From positions 1-32,372 of IMG/VR virus record IMGVR_UViG_2703718827_000001: 32,372 nt of DNA; one strand, given 5' to 3'. The translations under genes were made by a program, and so were the position numbers. Source of the DNA: a virus (Duplodnaviria > Heunggongvirae > Uroviricota > Caudoviricetes). Under the pieces are notes generated by a model that worked only from the letters and a program-made list of their open reading frames with translations, searched no databases and was not told the origin of the DNA. This document shows, one piece after another, positions 1 through 21,557 of this stretch (its first letter is position 1; the number at the start of each line of letters is the position of its first letter).

Positions 1-1154
1 GTGACGTAGTTGGTGACCAGTGATACCGGGTAAGTCGTGCCCTGCCAGCTGATGTTGAACGTCACAGGCGCGGTGCTAAAGTCGTAGGTGGTCGGCGCGG
101 CGCTGGCAGTTATGGTTGCGGCACTCCCACCCACCCCCGGCACTGCCGGAACGCCCGGGGCATAGCTGGCAATCACCAGATCGTAGTCATTGCCGTTATA
201 GTTCAGCGTCACCGGCATGCCTACATAAGGTGCAAGTTCCTCTATCCCGCCATAAATCATGCTGTAACCGCCGGACGACACGACCGTATACGAATTTGGG
301 GCCAGTACGGTGATCACCGTTCCGACGGTCCACGACGGCGGGATCTCCTCATCGCCAGACGACGATACGTCAACCAGCGTGATGGAGTTTCCAGACACGA
401 CCAGCGCATCAGCGATAATGCTGACCGTCTCCGGTCCGCTTGAGCCAAGGTCCAGCCCGGCAGTACCGGAACCGGTATTCCCGACCTCTGGTGAATTGAA
501 CCAGTTTTCAGTGCGCGTATCGCCGGATACCGTGGCGCCAGGCGGGTAGAGGGTGTAACGCACATCGGTACCGAACGCGGATATTGGCGTATTACCGATC
601 CTGATATCGGACTGGTTAATCACCATGTCGCCGACACCCACGCACAGGAACATGCTGGTTTCCATGCTGGTCTCGTTAACGAACCGGCTGACCGGCTGCA
701 CGACGTAATCAGGCCAGACGCGATATTTGCCGAAGATTTCCCGGATGGGGTCACCCAATTTCGCCGCGTTGGCTTTAGCCGGGTTGAGGTCAATCTGGTC
801 GCCGCTGGCCGCCTGGGCGCCACCGCCGCCAGCCTGAGACATTGTGCTCATCATGTAGATGCTGTACGCAGCAGAGGCTACGGCTACGCTGACGGCAACC
901 CAGATCGCGATTTCTGCACCGGTACCGTATGGCACCGGATACATCCTTACGTCTGTTTCTCGCTTGATAACGCACAGTGGCCACTCTGAAGCCGGGACGG
1001 GAACGCCATCGATTTCAACCGCGACCGGGTGCTGCTGATCCGGCGCCCAGCCCTTCACGTTCCGCGCAAACCAGGCGCTGAGCAACATCGTTTCATGTTC
1101 GTGCTTCTCCAGCGGTTCGCCCGGCAGGCGAGAGGGATAGATTCGGATCGTCAC
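1..1154 (-). CDS. Tail-tip protein (gpI/J-position), C-terminus truncated by the window edge
   Basis: Minus-strand frame is open from a GTG at 1152..1154 (overlapping the upstream stop as GTGA, with GGAG about 8 nt upstream) to position 1, translated by hand from the sequence; alternative ATG at 1086..1088. Contains a hydrophobic segment (AEIAIWVAVSVAVASAAYSIYMM) followed by a Gly-rich stretch. Position after the K-like gene. Not in the ORF track because it has no stop in the window. Confidence 0.45.
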   Translation of the reverse strand, partial: MTIRIYPSRLPGEPLEKHEHETMLLSAWFARNVKGWAPDQQHPVAVEIDGVPVPASEWPLCVIKRETDVRMYPVPYGTGAEIAIWVAVSVAVASAAYSIYMMSTMSQAGGGGAQAASGDQIDLNPAKANAAKLGDPIREIFGKYRVWPDYVVQPVSRFVNETSMETSMFLCVGVGDMVINQSDIRIGNTPISAFGTDVRYTLYPPGATVSGDTRTENWFNSPEVGNTGSGTAGLDLGSSGPETVSIIADALVVSGNSITLVDVSSSGDEEIPPSWTVGTVITVLAPNSYTVVSSGGYSMIYGGIEELAPYVGMPVTLNYNGNDYDLVIASYAPGVPAVPGVGGSAATITASAAPTTYDFSTAPVTFNISWQGTTYPVSLVTNYV

Positions 1155-5895: not shown

Positions 5896-6468
5896 TCAGA
5901 AAAAAAGATAGCCCACAGTAGTAATAGCTAACGCGCAAATCGGAGTGAGGATTGTTGCGATCCTCGCTCTGTCTAACCTGGTCCTGATTCGCTCATTCAC
6001 TTCACACAACTCTTCAGCTGTATTGTGCAAATTGGCTAACCTGATACGCCTGATTACTGATACCGGGTTGCGGTCAGCAGTAAACCCCCTACTTGCCAGT
6101 TCTTCGTAATGCTCATGGTCCAGCGATTTATAAAGTTTAGTATAGAGATCTGCCGGCGCTGAGTTAAGCAAAGCGCGAACCTGAACTGACAGGACGCCAG
6201 TAACCAAATAAATAGCGCACGCTGCCCAATAGAGCATGAACACACCAATACCTAGCGACATAAAAAAAGGTTGGTTATTTTGCGTCAGCAGTAAAAACGA
6301 TGAACCAATTCCGACAATAAGAATCCCAAGCAATTTGTATCCGTTTTCTCTGTTAATTGTATTCGATTGCTCGATCTCTTTGATGCACTCCTCGCCCTGT
6401 CTCTCGAGAAATTCAACAAGCTTATCATCGGCACTTAGAAAATAATCGTAAGGGAGATTTGTCATCAT
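5896..6468 (-). CDS. Multi-pass membrane protein (moron), unknown function
   Basis: 190 aa; two adjacent hydrophobic helices (LLGILIVGIGSSFLLLT and FFMSLGIGVFMLYWAACAIYLVTGV) and a C-terminal hydrophobic segment; weak RBS; AT-rich. Confidence 0.55.
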   Translation of the reverse strand: MMTNLPYDYFLSADDKLVEFLERQGEECIKEIEQSNTINRENGYKLLGILIVGIGSSFLLLTQNNQPFFMSLGIGVFMLYWAACAIYLVTGVLSVQVRALLNSAPADLYTKLYKSLDHEHYEELASRGFTADRNPVSVIRRIRLANLHNTAEELCEVNERIRTRLDRARIATILTPICALAITTVGYLFF

Positions 6469-6525
6469 AAACCGCTTAACTTTATGGACTTAGATAAATT
6501 TTAACCGATTGTGGGCTTGCGTATA

Positions 6526-6549
6526 AAGGAAAAGCCCACCTGAGTGGGC
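6526..6549 (-). terminator. Rho-independent terminator downstream of the KilA-N gene
   Basis: Minus-strand hairpin GCCCAC-TCAG-GTGGGC followed by TTTTCCTTTAT, about 10 nt after the KilA-N stop. Confidence 0.55.
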
Positions 6550-6559
6550 CTTGCCACCT

Positions 6560-7123
6560 TCACGCGATGCCTGGCAGGTACATCTGAACTTCATCGGCGA
6601 CGCGCTCCCTTGCTGCGTGCAACAGCTGCTTACGACCACCGACACCCCACCGGGCCATCTGGCTGGCGCATTGGCTGATCTGCCTGGTTTCAGTGTTGAT
6701 GATGTGGTCGATTTTGTTCAGGCGAGACATGGCACTGATACCGAGGCGCACTACGGTTCTGAACACCTCATACACTTCAATCTCAAATTCCGGCTTAATC
6801 CATGCAGCATAACGGATCGCCAACAGTTCAACACCCCAAACGCCTGGTTCATCCCCACCTTTAATAACATTAAGTGGTTGAATTTGTTCCAGAGTGCTTT
6901 TTTGCACTTTGGCTTTTAGTGCTTTTATGAAGCGCTTAACTTGAGCACTACGCAAAAACTGACTTGGGCGCTGCTGTTCTGTTGCCTCTCCGTTTGCCAC
7001 TGCGGCTGCATGAAGATCATTAAGGTTATAGCGCCCTTCGTCATCAACGCGAACGGAAACGCCGTTTACTGATACGGTTGGATATTTCATTGCGATTTGC
7101 CTATAGAAAGCAGAGCCTGTCAC
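6560..7123 (-). CDS. KilA-N domain protein (moron inside the tail operon)
   Basis: 187 aa; N-terminal region (VSVNGVSVRVDDEGRYNLNDLHAAA ... VIKGGDEPGVWGVELLAIRYAAWIKPEFE) matches the KilA-N/APSES-type DNA-binding domain pattern; possible alternative start at Met12. Confidence 0.7.
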   Translation of the reverse strand: MTGSAFYRQIAMKYPTVSVNGVSVRVDDEGRYNLNDLHAAAVANGEATEQQRPSQFLRSAQVKRFIKALKAKVQKSTLEQIQPLNVIKGGDEPGVWGVELLAIRYAAWIKPEFEIEVYEVFRTVVRLGISAMSRLNKIDHIINTETRQISQCASQMARWGVGGRKQLLHAARERVADEVQMYLPGIA

Positions 7124-16983: not shown

Positions 16984-18456
16984 TTAGAAGAATACTGCGC
17001 CGACCTGTTTGTGGTTGTTCTTCGCTACGGCAAAGTAGCGGAAACTGTCAGCGCCGTGTGATGTGAAGTCATGAAGCGGCTTATCTTTCCAGCAGCCGCG
17101 CTTGTCGTCCCACTCCTTGCGGTAGCCCTCGAGGTGAGATATGCCCTCGGCACACTTCTCCTCATCGAATACACAGGACGGGAGGATTTCGCGCACCGAC
17201 TCAATGCCGGTGTCTATTCCCACTTTCGGAACCACCTGAAACGTCATGCTGTAAACCTGCCCGTCGATTTCATACCCTTCACGGGCAAGTTCTCTGCGGG
17301 ATTTGGCGTCAGCACCGAATTCACGGTTATCGATGTCGTGCGGACCCCAATGCTCGCCGTACTCGTAGCCGCGGTCTTTCAGCACCTTCATGTAGTGCCT
17401 CAGGCCTTCGCCGGAGTTTTCGTAGTAGTCGATGATGTGGAACTCTTCGCCAACCTCACGAACGAACCAGATCGCCGTTGAGTCACCCACACCGATATCC
17501 CAGAACGTGTGTACCGGGAGGTGCGAGTTATCAGGGATTTGGCCGATCCGCTTGTTGGTATAGAGCCAGCGGAATTGTTTGGCGTAGTACGCGCCCTCGA
17601 CCGACTGCTGGAACGCCTCGGCCGGAATGGTCGGGTATTCGCGCTTCATGTCATCGCCGAGCGTTTTCTCTTTGGCGTAGTACCAGGCTTTCTGGCGCTC
17701 ATTGACGACTACGCCGTGCTTAGCCTCCATCTCGGCGAAGTACTCAAGCAGGCGCGCCGGCAGAGACTCGACCGGGTCGATTGCGTAGTGTGGATTCTTC
17801 CACCAGGAGAAGAAGAAAAACTTCCAGTCCAGCGCGGATAAAGGCTTACCCTGAAGCAGTGCTTTCTCTGCCGTCTGGCAGTAATCGAAGAAGTAACCCG
17901 CCCGGCCCTCTGCCGTGCTCTCGATAGTAGCGAAGCATCCAGTAGATACCGCCTCAAACGCACCAGTGACGATTTCACGGGCTTTGTCAGGATACTTGGC
18001 GCATATCTTCCCGAACTCTGAAACGTGCAGGTAACGCAGCGTACCGCCACGAAACGACGTGCTGACGTATAGCGAGCCGCCCTTCTTAAAGACGAGCTCA
18101 CCAGACGAATCATTGCTCGCCGGGTTGGCCGCCTTTATCTCTGCCGGAAGCTTGTCATAAGCGTACTTCACCTTTTCGCGGAACAGGCGCTTTGCGTCAT
18201 TCAGCGTGTGGGCAATCAGCGCGCACTTTGCCGACTCAAACAGGGCCGCGTCGAGCTGGATGATGCACACCTCTGTGGTGAACCCGAGCTGGCGAGCTTT
18301 CAGGATGATGTTGCGTGTGTGGATCCCTTCGAAGTATTCCCGCTGCTCAGGCGTCATCCTGAACCGCGTAGGCTTTCCCTCTTTGTCGGTGATCCAGTAA
18401 AGATTGTTCAGCCGCCAGTCTTTGTCGGACAGCAGCTTCAGATGCTCAGGTTTCAT
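16984..18456 (-). CDS. terL: Terminase large subunit
   Basis: 490 aa; N-terminal ATPase region with Walker-A-like ARQLGFTT, C-terminal nuclease-type region with acidic motifs (FWDIGVGDSTAIW, HDID); follows the small subunit gene with a 1 nt overlap. Confidence 0.85.
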   Translation of the reverse strand: MKPEHLKLLSDKDWRLNNLYWITDKEGKPTRFRMTPEQREYFEGIHTRNIILKARQLGFTTEVCIIQLDAALFESAKCALIAHTLNDAKRLFREKVKYAYDKLPAEIKAANPASNDSSGELVFKKGGSLYVSTSFRGGTLRYLHVSEFGKICAKYPDKAREIVTGAFEAVSTGCFATIESTAEGRAGYFFDYCQTAEKALLQGKPLSALDWKFFFFSWWKNPHYAIDPVESLPARLLEYFAEMEAKHGVVVNERQKAWYYAKEKTLGDDMKREYPTIPAEAFQQSVEGAYYAKQFRWLYTNKRIGQIPDNSHLPVHTFWDIGVGDSTAIWFVREVGEEFHIIDYYENSGEGLRHYMKVLKDRGYEYGEHWGPHDIDNREFGADAKSRRELAREGYEIDGQVYSMTFQVVPKVGIDTGIESVREILPSCVFDEEKCAEGISHLEGYRKEWDDKRGCWKDKPLHDFTSHGADSFRYFAVAKNNHKQVGAVFF

Positions 18457-18971
18457 TACGCCCCCTGAGACAGTGAATCCATCAGGTCTGAAATCGAATC
18501 AACTACGTGCTCAGTTTTTACCTGCTCACGGAATGCCTGGACGTCGATATGCTTACCAATCAGTTCGAGGTTCTTAACCTTATCAGGCCACTTAATCTTC
18601 TTGAGCAGTGCGGCGGTGTTTCCCTCGGCTGACATCTCGACGACATCCAGCCCGGATAATGTCGTCCTCCAGACCTTCGGCCACTGAGACACCGGCTTCA
18701 ACTCTCCGGTCGAGGTCAGGATATCCAGCACGTCCATCTGGTCAATCTCAACGAGACGATTCAGGACGTATGTCGCATTTATACCAACCAGATCATTGCG
18801 TTGCGATTTAAGTTCGGCAATTCTGGACTGGATGTCAGGTTTTGACAGGTTTTCGGACGCGGTGCGGTTAGCTGTCTTTGCGCTGTACCCCGCCCGAATA
18901 GCCGCTTGCGTGGCGTTTAAATCGATGAGGTACTCGCGACAGAACATTTCTTGCTTGTCGGTGAGTGCCAT
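18456..18971 (-). CDS. terS: Terminase small subunit
   Basis: 171 aa; N-terminus MALTDKQEMFCREYLIDLNATQAAIRAGYS matches the conserved Terminase_2-type small-subunit HTH. Confidence 0.8.
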   Translation of the reverse strand: MALTDKQEMFCREYLIDLNATQAAIRAGYSAKTANRTASENLSKPDIQSRIAELKSQRNDLVGINATYVLNRLVEIDQMDVLDILTSTGELKPVSQWPKVWRTTLSGLDVVEMSAEGNTAALLKKIKWPDKVKNLELIGKHIDVQAFREQVKTEHVVDSISDLMDSLSQGA

Positions 18972-18998: not shown

Positions 18999-19334
18999 AT
19001 GTCTACAGAATCACTTCTTGATGCGATGCTAAAACATGATCGTTTTCATAATCAAAATGCGATGGTTCCAGGAATAGCCCAAAGAGCAGTTGATAATGGG
19101 TACGACAGCCTAACCGCAAAGCAACAGGCTGTTTTAGACCCTTTCTTAACCGAGAAATGTGATGGAGTAACCAACCCTGGAGGACATCATAACGACTGCC
19201 AAGTCATCCTTGAGGGTGACGATCTCGAAAGTGCTATTGAAAATGAAATGTATTATGGAGGGCTGCTATGCCCTTCATGCGTCGACGAGAAGGAGCATTA
19301 CAAGGCTGAATGGGAAAGAATTCAGCGCGAGTAA
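18999..19334 (+). CDS. Cys-rich small protein (moron), divergent from terS
   Basis: Start at the ATG preceded by AAAAGGAG (strong Shine-Dalgarno); 111 aa with CDG...HHNDC...CPSC motifs suggesting metal binding; plus strand, opposite to the backbone. Confidence 0.5.
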   Translation: MSTESLLDAMLKHDRFHNQNAMVPGIAQRAVDNGYDSLTAKQQAVLDPFLTEKCDGVTNPGGHHNDCQVILEGDDLESAIENEMYYGGLLCPSCVDEKEHYKAEWERIQRE

Positions 19335-19393: not shown

Positions 19394-19609
19394 CTAATCT
19401 GCCATCTCGTTTAACAGTTCGGTCTGCTCTTCCGGTACTGGCGTGAACTCCACGCGCTTTACATCGGCAGGAGCGAAATATAGCCATTGGCCCGTTTCTG
19501 TCGCCAGCGGCACAAAACCGTTAACCAGCTCAGGCTGACATCGAGGCATCTTGCCCGTAACGGCCTGTCTTGCCTGGCTGGTGGGAGTGATTTGATAGAT
19601 AGAGGTCAT
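19394..19609 (-). CDS. Hypothetical protein (71 aa)
   Basis: ORF on the backbone strand between the lysis cassette and terminase; no recognisable motif. Confidence 0.35.
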   Translation of the reverse strand: MTSIYQITPTSQARQAVTGKMPRCQPELVNGFVPLATETGQWLYFAPADVKRVEFTPVPEEQTELLNEMAD

Positions 19610-19672
19610 ATCAGAGACTCATAATTGTGTGTTTAAATGTTTTTCAAAAATACATTCAGATAAGGAAAAGAG

Positions 19673-20254
19673 ATGAATCCTGTAATTTTTATGAAAATCT
19701 TCGGTGAGGTGGATATCTCAAAGTTTTTTATTTCCATTGACCAAAATGAAGATGAACTTGGCTCGGTTTTAAGAGTTCATCTTTTGTCTGAGCGGCTACT
19801 TGATGCATGGATAGCGGCCCATATAAATAAAGAAGATTTGTTTCAAAATTCACCGGGCGAGAAAATAAAGTTCAATCCGAGCTATGGGATGAAACTTGGA
19901 CTCGCAAAGAAGTTAGGAATGCACGCTGAGTTATGTTCTTGCCTGCAAACTATTAACAAAATAAGAAATAACTTTGCTCATCGCTATGATTGCGAACCCC
20001 TAACAGATAAAGACATGCAAGCGATGGAAAATGCACTCAAAGGCGCTCCTCTACCTGCGAAAGTCAGAGCCGTCAGTGAAATTGATTTCAAGATTATTGA
20101 TATCACTGGTAAGGAAATTAAAAGCTACCATTTCAATGATGAAGAAACGCCAAATCGAATCCGCCTGCTTATTATTTTCGCCAGCATAATGGCAAGAATC
20201 ATCACTGTGGTAGTGGATAAACTTAAGACAATTGACCCCTTAGTCTTCAAATAA
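19673..20254 (+). CDS. HEPN-motif protein (candidate abortive-infection / RNase-type defence moron)
   Basis: 193 aa; R-x4-H motif (IRNNFAHRYD, R98 to H103) in a predicted helical context, matching the HEPN Rx4-6H signature; AAGGA RBS; AT-rich; transcribed opposite to the flanking late genes. Confidence 0.55.
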   Translation: MNPVIFMKIFGEVDISKFFISIDQNEDELGSVLRVHLLSERLLDAWIAAHINKEDLFQNSPGEKIKFNPSYGMKLGLAKKLGMHAELCSCLQTINKIRNNFAHRYDCEPLTDKDMQAMENALKGAPLPAKVRAVSEIDFKIIDITGKEIKSYHFNDEETPNRIRLLIIFASIMARIITVVVDKLKTIDPLVFK

Positions 20255-20319
20255 CAATCTGGGATATAAACCCCAGACTTTCTATGCTTAAAGTCCAGAA
20301 GAGAGACTGTGCCAGAACC

Positions 20320-20547
20320 TCAGGGATGAGGTTCTATTCTGGCGCAGTTCGCCTGCACCGATTTGTTGTGCGCCAGCACGTCTTTCTTCGTCTGGCGATC
20401 CATCACTTCGATGTCGTGCTCAGTGAGGCGGATGACGTTTACCCAGTCACAGCCGGTGTCGATGACCTCAATCTTTGCGGGTCCAGTTTGCGCGCAGCTC
20501 GCGATCAACATCGTCATCAGGCATATGGCTAACTGTCTGCTGAACAT
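20320..20547 (-). CDS. o-spanin (Rz1-like outer-membrane lipoprotein)
   Basis: 75 aa; signal peptide with lipobox LIASC; starts inside the 3' end of the i-spanin gene in another frame (overlapped spanin architecture). Confidence 0.6.
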   Translation of the reverse strand: MFSRQLAICLMTMLIASCAQTGPAKIEVIDTGCDWVNVIRLTEHDIEVMDRQTKKDVLAHNKSVQANCARIEPHP

Positions 20548-20740
20548 TGCTGGCCTCCTTGGTTACTTCAACGCGGCGTTCTGCAGCTGCTTTGGTGGCT
20601 GCTGCGTTATCGTCGGTTCGCTGCTTATCGGCTTTGTCTTCTGCCCTCTCCCGTCCACGCATGCTGCCCAGGCCAAAAGCGCCCAGCACCACCAGCACAA
20701 CAGTGACGATAAACGCCAGGATGGCTTTCAGTTTGGTCAT
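20468..20740 (-). CDS. i-spanin (Rz-like)
   Basis: 90 aa; N-terminal transmembrane segment (ILAFIVTVVLVVLGAFGLG) followed by a charged periplasmic region; directly downstream of the endolysin. Confidence 0.6.
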   Translation of the reverse strand: MTKLKAILAFIVTVVLVVLGAFGLGSMRGRERAEDKADKQRTDDNAAATKAAAERRVEVTKEASNVQQTVSHMPDDDVDRELRANWTRKD

Positions 20741-21279
20741 AGGCTCACGCGCTCCCGGATCCAGCCATACACGAATGACTCGTTTTGCTGGCGCTGCTCT
20801 GCCAGTTCGAGATAACGCTGCCCTTGGCTGCAGTTAAGCGAGCGAAGCAATACGGTCTCCCCTTCACTACCACGCTTCGCCAGGTAAGACTTCAGCGCGC
20901 TGATGCTGCGCGGGCCAATCTGGCCGTCGGCGATCAGGTCGGGATAGAACTGCTGCTGGTTGTTGAATACGTTCAGCCAGCGCTGGAACCACTTCACCTG
21001 TACCGATGGCCCCATGTTCACGCCGGTGTCGCAGAGTTCAGCGGCAATTGCAGGGGATAAAGACGCCACCTGGTCGAAGCGTGGGCCATACCAGTAATCA
21101 GCCTCGAGGATTTCCAGAGCCTGCTCGCGGGTCAGGTCTCGCATGTCACCGCTATAACCATGGGCGCGGGCCGTTGCCTGAGTAATCCCCCAGTTCGTCG
21201 GGCCGCCTTTATCGTTCGGGTGATTAACGTAACCTCCCTCTTTTCCGAGGATGGCATTGAAGATGTCGTCTTTGGTCAT
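20737..21279 (-). CDS. Endolysin, glycoside hydrolase family 108-type with C-terminal peptidoglycan-binding region
   Basis: Start at MTKDD (ATG overlapping the upstream holin stop as ATGA); motif ILGKEGGYVNHPNDKGGPTNWGIT is characteristic of GH108 lysozymes. Confidence 0.75.
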   Translation of the reverse strand: MTKDDIFNAILGKEGGYVNHPNDKGGPTNWGITQATARAHGYSGDMRDLTREQALEILEADYWYGPRFDQVASLSPAIAAELCDTGVNMGPSVQVKWFQRWLNVFNNQQQFYPDLIADGQIGPRSISALKSYLAKRGSEGETVLLRSLNCSQGQRYLELAEQRQQNESFVYGWIRERVSL

Positions 21280-21557
21280 TGCCCGGCCTTCTGGAATACT
21301 TTGGCGAGATTGCCACGGGAGCGCCACACCGCAACGCATATGGCGACGTTCAGCATCAGCTCTCCCGGATCCACCTGCAGGTATTTGCCATAGAGAATGC
21401 GGAATGAGGTGAATCCGGCGGCCAGAATCATCAGGTACGCCATCCACGCAACAGCCGGACGGTGTCGCTTCCCACTCTTACTGAAGAACATCAGCCGGAC
21501 GGCGATAAGCGCGCAGATAATGGCGTTTACATCAAGAACGATGGCTTGCCATGTCAT
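21276..21557 (-). CDS. Holin-like membrane protein (holin or antiholin)
   Basis: 93 aa with two or three hydrophobic helices; immediately upstream of the endolysin with 4 nt overlaps on both sides. Confidence 0.6.
   Translation of the reverse strand: MTWQAIVLDVNAIICALIAVRLMFFSKSGKRHRPAVAWMAYLMILAAGFTSFRILYGKYLQVDPGELMLNVAICVAVWRSRGNLAKVFQKAGQ

Follow-up and report, generated by a model that had tools for sequence, protein, structure and literature searches.

A putative solo HEPN nuclease gene antisense to the late operon of a lambdoid prophage: a divergent relative of HepS in the branch typified by phi80 gp63

The closest described system is HepS, the 'HEPN Solo defence element' (STM14_3211; PDB 9oij/9oik) of the Salmonella Typhimurium prophage Gifsy-1, which was published in January 2026 as a prophage-borne anti-phage "suicide" nuclease (Sargen et al., Nature 2026, PMC13043305). 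In the resting state HepS is a constitutively expressed, non-toxic tetramer, and it is activated on binding the central-fibre region of the siphovirus tail-tip protein J, for which the trigger is given as residues 902-933 of lambda J with F924 as the key residue (PMC13043305). The trigger peptide binds at the N- and C-terminal segments of HepS, whereby R100 and H105 are repositioned, and the activated enzyme cuts tRNA anticodon loops, chiefly those of tRNA-Thr, so that the infection is aborted (PMC13043305). Both R100 and H105 are needed for defence and for tRNA cleavage, and N101 is modelled as touching the anticodon (PMC13043305). HepS has no partner gene and needs no antitoxin, and self-killing of Gifsy-1 is avoided by an Ile at the trigger position of its own J (PMC13043305). 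Gifsy-1 is also reported to carry several anticodon nucleases, one of which is activated by oxidative stress, and proteins of 35-50% identity are called 'closely related' to HepS, with 393 homologues listed (PMC13043305). A second point of comparison is Tha/Ith of Staphylococcus aureus prophages, a HEPN RNase defence triggered by a tail protein, where immunity is tied to the life cycle of the phage by antisense transcription in a 'noncontiguous operon' (Rostol et al., Nat Microbiol 2024, PMC11087260). The HepS authors regard this system as unrelated to HepS and describe Tha as a non-specific RNase that has its own inhibitor protein, Ith (PMC13043305).

The locus studied here was analysed in a window of 32,372 nucleotides (the whole of IMG/VR record IMGVR_UViG_2703718827_000001, Caudoviricetes). 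The features of the locus and of its immediate surroundings are the following.

19673..20254, plus strand: HEPN gene of 193 aa with ATG start, stop codon included (open reading frame read from the sequence)
19964..19981, plus strand: codons of RNNFAH (R98-N99-N100-F101-A102-H103), the predicted HEPN RNase active site
19662..19666, plus strand: Shine-Dalgarno-like AAGGA, 6 nt before the ATG (from the sequence; GGA or GGAG kept in related loci)
19630..19638, plus strand: TG-n-TTAAAT, candidate extended -10 promoter element (core conserved in six loci)
20256..20279, no strand assigned: G+C-rich hairpin between the convergent HEPN and o-spanin genes, terminator-like on both strands
19621..20276, no strand assigned: cargo (moron) slot of 656 bp, GC 0.38, delimited by blastn against the ENT1 locus L021
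20320..20740, minus strand: Rz/Rz1-type spanin genes at the end of the late-operon lysis cassette (context only)
20468..20740, minus strand: Rz-like i-spanin (the spanin pair matches phrog_1026 and phrog_1275)
20320..20547, minus strand: o-spanin (of the same pair)
19394..19609, minus strand: 71-aa gene on the late-operon strand, phrog_6581 (context, no partner)
18999..19334, plus strand: 111-aa Cys-rich antisense gene, phrog_12178 (context, no partner)
18456..18971, minus strand: terS (Terminase_2, E 3e-40)

The first-pass annotation had placed here a 193-aa plus-strand gene with a ribosome-binding site of its own, in an AT-rich pocket between the o-spanin and terS that was taken to be a moron hotspot, and the closer analysis agrees on each count. 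The open reading frame is exact and is preceded by the AAGGA listed above, and its G+C fraction of 0.383, together with 0.27 for the 63-bp upstream spacer, lies well below the 0.526 of the whole window. When the window is aligned by blastn with Enterobacter phage ENT1, which is without the HEPN gene, homology ends at 20277 and restarts at 19620, and unrelated genes fill the ENT1 slot. Because of the low G+C content, the slot being otherwise filled in ENT1 and the conserved -10-like element and ribosome-binding site upstream, the HEPN gene is a lysogenic-conversion cassette, or moron, which a lambdoid siphovirus prophage carries in the orientation opposite to its late operon; the site after Rz1 is a general cargo hotspot. 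The genes found in the ENT1 slot (1582..2990 of L021) are a Rha-like gene of 177 aa and a gene of 184 aa, both co-directional with the late operon, and in phi80 also rha adjoins the HEPN gene.

For the regulation of the cassette, six loci agree at T19633, A19635-37, T19638 and G19639, the Serratia locus with its different upstream neighbour among them, and the TG-n-TTAAAT block is the likely -10 of the cassette's own promoter, with a predicted transcription start at about 19645. This assignment is at the level of consensus; the promoter scanner finds promoter-like sites no more commonly than in shuffled sequence. The sigma-70 match proposed by the scanner, TAGATA-18-CATAAT (19596-19625), was rejected, being neither conserved in the related loci nor more frequent than in shuffles. 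The hairpin at the other end of the gene has a stem of 10 pairs on the minus strand and 6 pairs on the plus strand, and its distal half (from 20277) is common to ENT1.

For comparison with HepS, the 210-aa HepS sequence was rebuilt from three overlapping database fragments; the rebuilt sequence reproduces the published numbering at S13, D15, Y20, R100, H105 and the other residues checked. BLASTP of the HEPN protein against HepS gave an E-value of 1e-9, with 24% identity over 109 aa, hhalign gave a probability of 95.6%, and a profile of the window clade matched the HepS sequence of the PDB at E 1.4e-6, with the alignment running through the motif. The clade profile also finds P0166, a HepS-like representative that is 30% identical to HepS over 196 aa, at E 7e-7, and HepS used as BLASTP query detects most of the 147 representatives of the exhaustive search given below. 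A tblastn search of the phage collection with a HepS fragment gave no match. As to structure, an AlphaFold2 model built on a 16-sequence alignment (pLDDT 85.8, pTM 0.84) is mainly helical, with a small beta-hairpin at residues 138-153, and the motif terminates the helix formed by residues 85-103. The four HepS chains are the four best Foldseek matches of this model (probability 1.00 each, TM 0.44-0.57), and the predicted similarity to the HepS crystal structure extends over most of the chain; a fold search of BFVD gave no significant match. Both marks of the HEPN superfamily are present: an alpha-helical HEPN fold, as judged from the model, and a conserved Rx4-6H motif.

The R-x4-H motif RNNFAH at residues 98-103, from which the gene had first been called HEPN, is by itself no better than chance: when the protein is shuffled, R-x4-H turns up in 19% of the shuffles and R-x4-6-H in 47%. 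Despite this the motif is real, because it is conserved across the family: R98, N99 and H103, along with E40, are invariant in all 65 sequences of a family alignment spanning all clades. An exhaustive HMMER search of 1.84 billion representatives with the clade profile gave 226 proteins at E<=1e-3, of which 63 reach E<=1e-10; their length is almost always 160-215 aa, and RNxx[AGS]H stands at the same position in 141 of the 147 new distant representatives. Nearer to the window protein are 15 full-length homologues of 47-99% identity from Enterobacter, Citrobacter, Cronobacter and Serratia, all annotated as hypothetical, and on aligning these close homologues the block N95..R98-N99-x-F101-A102-H103-x-Y105-D106-C107 is invariant. 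The terminal segments also vary little among members of the clade (N-terminal I5, F6, G11 and D14; C-terminal L190, F192 and K193), which fits a putative sensor role with a specificity other than that of HepS. Conservation of the motif residues among homologues and a structural comparison of the fold had both been named at first pass among the checks for a HEPN RNase of the abortive-infection kind, and the fold of the model, the conservation and the homology to HepS all point to such an enzyme. As a separate observation, the RNxxAH motif has decayed to KDNFAS and KNQLSH in two full-length members of the family, P0124 and P0132, which may be inactivated or non-catalytic derivatives.

An all-against-all comparison divides the family into two supergroups. 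The window clade matches the phi80 clade with a median of about 92 bits and 29% identity over 183 aa, which is the full length, and the protein of Salmonella phage FSL SP-016 with a median of about 68 bits and 30% identity over about 160 aa; to the HepS clade the median is about 43 bits, with 26% identity over 113 aa in the core only. For phage phi80 itself, gp63 (PHI80_63, AFV29200.1) is 28.6% identical to the window protein (E 1e-20). Both gp63 and SP016_00215 of SP-016 are full-length homologues with the same motif, belong like the window protein to phrog_5483, for which no function is annotated, and share its placement, antisense after lysis and before packaging, with no conserved partner. 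They differ from it in belonging to a different clade, in a longer C-terminal tail and in having Pro where the window protein has Tyr at 105; both are recorded as hypothetical proteins, and a literature search linking phi80 to HEPN returned only incidental mentions of strains. From these sequence comparisons, the window protein is a divergent HepS-family member whose branch, a sister to that of HepS, has phi80 gp63 as its type. With an identity to HepS of 22-26%, over the core only (residues 19-127), it falls outside the 35-50% set of close homologues of PMC13043305.

The catalytic R100, N101 and H105 of HepS align with R98, N99 and H103 of the RNNFAH motif and are kept; of the modelled tRNA contacts, N101 is kept as N99 and K71 is replaced by P69. 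Like HepS, the window protein is stand-alone, shorter than 250 aa, of a single domain, without a conserved partner and prophage-borne, and all contexts found for the window family are lambdoid prophages. On the other hand, the residues through which HepS senses its trigger are largely different. The contacts S202 and T203 correspond to I187 and D188 and are not conserved, and S13 and D15 correspond, tentatively as the N-terminal alignment is unstable, to V4 and F6. The relay pair Y20/I107 would correspond to G11 (or I5 in a smaller alignment) and Y105, again tentatively. At the tetramer interface F66 is replaced by K64 and K78 by G76 while L83 is kept as L81, and the C-terminal helical region of HepS is longer than that of the window protein. 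An earlier candidate difference, a missing N-terminus relative to HepS, was dropped, as the larger alignment shows the segment to be present with different residues. Given the loss of the residues with which HepS contacts its trigger, this protein probably responds to another trigger and perhaps cuts another RNA target than HepS does. Placement differs as well: HepS and its nearer relatives are co-directional with their surroundings, between the replication genes and the nin/Q region (early-right operon), whereas the window gene is antisense within the late operon, and because of the co-directional position of HepS the regulation of the two genes may differ. Among the loci of HepS, P0052 and P0044 (L012 and L014-L016), we also saw that HepS and its near relatives repeatedly follow directly on a DNA_pol3_theta (HolE-like) gene of the early-right region (L014-L016).

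The antisense position of the window gene, directly behind the lysis genes and ahead of those for packaging, is found in 9 of the 9 close loci, and it recurs in the one sampled prophage locus of the phi80 clade (L013) and in phages phi80 and SP-016, even as these elements differ in their holins, endolysins, spanins and terminases. Taking this together with the homology, we consider it moderately probable, by analogy with HepS for the defence mechanism, that the gene encodes a solo HEPN endoribonuclease of the HepS family and phi80 gp63-like branch, carried as a lysogenic-conversion cassette. From the HepS case we infer expression in the lysogen, a resting oligomer, activation by a late phage protein, RNA cleavage and abortive infection. 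The protein would be made from its own promoter in lysogeny and would rest as an oligomer without activity until a protein made late by an infecting phage binds it and opens the composite R/H active sites; the enzyme would then cut RNA, most likely tRNA anticodon loops; and translation would stop, aborting the infection and protecting the lysogen population. On induction of the carrier prophage itself, Q-antiterminated late transcription would run head-on through the gene and probably shut down new synthesis, which would help to avoid self-targeting, as may be compared with the antisense arrangement of Tha/Ith. Yet shutting off transcription leaves the protein already made, and antisense silencing alone cannot guarantee self-immunity. 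With Tha/Ith it is the logic of regulation alone that is compared, not the sequences: both are prophage HEPN defences, putatively so here, with antisense coupling to the life cycle, but in Tha/Ith the inhibitor gene is antisense within the lysogeny operon, whereas here it is the gene of the nuclease that opposes its operon, the late one, and there is no evident inhibitor.

More tentatively, and with a probability that we would set well short of even, the phi80 gp63-like branch may be a distinct sensor-effector that responds to a cue other than the central-fibre peptide of lambda J, with antisense nesting in the Q-dependent late operon silencing the nuclease gene when the carrier prophage goes lytic. 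Were this so, its route to self-immunity would differ from the evasion by trigger variants of Gifsy-1 and HepS. What is new here is the divergent member; the kind of system, solo HEPN defence, has already been published in 2026. If the assignment holds, HepS-type solo nucleases for abortive infection extend beyond the Gifsy-1 clade, and a second, deeply diverged branch would occupy another cargo slot, in the lambdoid prophages of Enterobacter, Citrobacter, Cronobacter, Serratia and E. coli, phi80 among them. With the core kept and the sensor residues replaced, setting the two branches side by side would show how a single small protein can be adapted to different triggers, and they would also let the ways of avoiding self-killing be compared, silent trigger variants in one case and possibly antisense silencing in the other.

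An active HEPN RNase might also serve the phage otherwise than by defence, through stabilising lysogeny, tuning its own late transcripts, a response to stress, or exclusion of competitors in which the cell survives. The antisense placement allows for this, as the mRNA of the gene and the late transcript could interact, and so does the oxidative-stress activation reported for one Gifsy-1 anticodon nuclease. We nevertheless regard it as unlikely: among characterised proteins the closest, HepS, acts in abortive infection, a nuclease that is expressed in the lysogen without any partner is what one would expect of a sensor-effector, and both position and architecture are typical of defence morons. 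It is highly unlikely that the protein is a catalytically silent regulator of HEPN fold that binds RNA or protein, like MtlR/YggD: the invariance of the R, N and H speaks for catalysis being under selection, the sequence homology is to HepS and not to MtlR, and the context is prophage cargo and not a metabolic operon.

On the question of a partner, the 71-aa gene adjoins the closest HEPN homologues (75-83% identity) but is absent beside those of Serratia, phi80 and SP-016, and it occurs in 13 phage genomes without the HEPN gene. As described at first pass it is on the other strand and GC-rich, that is, on the minus strand of the late operon with the G+C content of the phage backbone. We rejected it as a partner on its absence in Serratia, its presence in the 13 phages without the HEPN gene and its want of homology to the 'Fur-regulated' neighbour in phi80. 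The arrangement with the Cys-rich 111-aa gene, suggested earlier as a new type, did not hold, as a homologue is found in only 2 of the 9 loci with the HEPN gene and the gene has no similarity to the equally long neighbour in SP-016. For the record, this gene has four Cys and a GC of 0.44, is itself antisense cargo, the second such gene here, situated between terS and the 71-aa gene, and has a 46%-identical homologue in the same place in two Citrobacter prophage loci (L007 and L010) and not in the other loci. Neither neighbour has a nucleotidyltransferase, a Pfam domain or a PADLOC match, and no minimal nucleotidyltransferase antitoxin gene, as in HEPN-MNT pairs, is adjacent. The earlier impression of a stand-alone effector with no obvious antitoxin beside it is therefore upheld by neighbours that are not conserved and have no partner-type domains, and the HEPN protein is stand-alone, with no conserved partner gene. 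That it is the toxin of a two-gene toxin-antitoxin pair, of HEPN-MNT or of a new type with the 71-aa or the 111-aa gene as antitoxin, consequently has very little probability, given the lack of the domains, the distribution of both genes and the strand and backbone G+C of the 71-aa gene; HepS itself also requires no antitoxin.

The general annotation libraries do not recognise the protein. Scans against Pfam, NCBIfam and PADLOC gave nothing above threshold, and HepS likewise is not recognised by Pfam of 2025, NCBIfam of June 2026 or PADLOC of 2023, a library that predates HepS. As neither branch is recognised by these libraries, such genes are missed in defence-system surveys. The Abi_2 (AbiD/AbiF), DUF4145 and HEPN-MNT toxin families have the same superfamily fold and the same Rx4-6H logic, but the window protein is short and stand-alone, not a component of a fusion or operon, and has no MNT partner. 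Neither the window protein nor its clade matched DUF4145 (PF13643, threshold 23.1 bits) at E<=1, and HepS scored 18.6 bits, below threshold; the UniRef record of one homologue (P0010) is named 'DUF4145 domain-containing'. Membership of the Abi_2 (AbiD/AbiF) family, to which the first-pass annotation had leaned, is scarcely credible: though weak matches centred on the motif are seen in 9 of 16 clade members (best E 0.052), that of the window protein to PF07751 scores 13.1 bits against a gathering threshold of 25.6 (E 0.12) and covers only some 30 residues around the motif (74-104), matches to HEPN_Cthe2314 and HEPN_RiboL-PSP are equally weak, HepS yields sub-threshold matches of the same kind, and HepS is the best match of the window protein in both sequence and structure.

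The carrier prophage is a siphovirus, with a major tail protein and a tape measure of 808 aa, and three further genes of its structural module are of interest here.

1..1154, minus strand: GpJ-type tail-tip gene, first 384 aa, cut by the left edge of the window (PF24801 in relatives)
5896..6468, minus strand: 190-aa gene in the tail operon just upstream of the tape-measure gene (phrog_11870, no annotated function)
6560..7123, minus strand: KilA-N/'transcriptional regulator' gene in the tail operon just upstream of the tape-measure gene (phrog_129)

The tail-tip fragment shares 96% identity with a 1027-aa protein that related prophages encode. In the close relatives this 1027-aa protein has no match to the trigger region 902-933 of lambda J, the window itself holding the first 384 aa only. 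Because the relatives' protein has no detectable counterpart of that region, a sensor of the lambda-J type would, on this indirect evidence, not be set off by the tail tip of the carrier prophage itself. In the relatives, variable tailspike genes follow the tail-tip gene. The genes at 5896..7123 look like further cargo within the structural module. In the lysis region, the endolysin reading frame at 20737..21447 on the minus strand (236 aa, GTG start) is probably over-extended; its upstream part overlaps the reading frames of the holin region, and the recognisable enzyme starts at an internal MTKDDIFNAILGKEGGYVNHPNDKGG.
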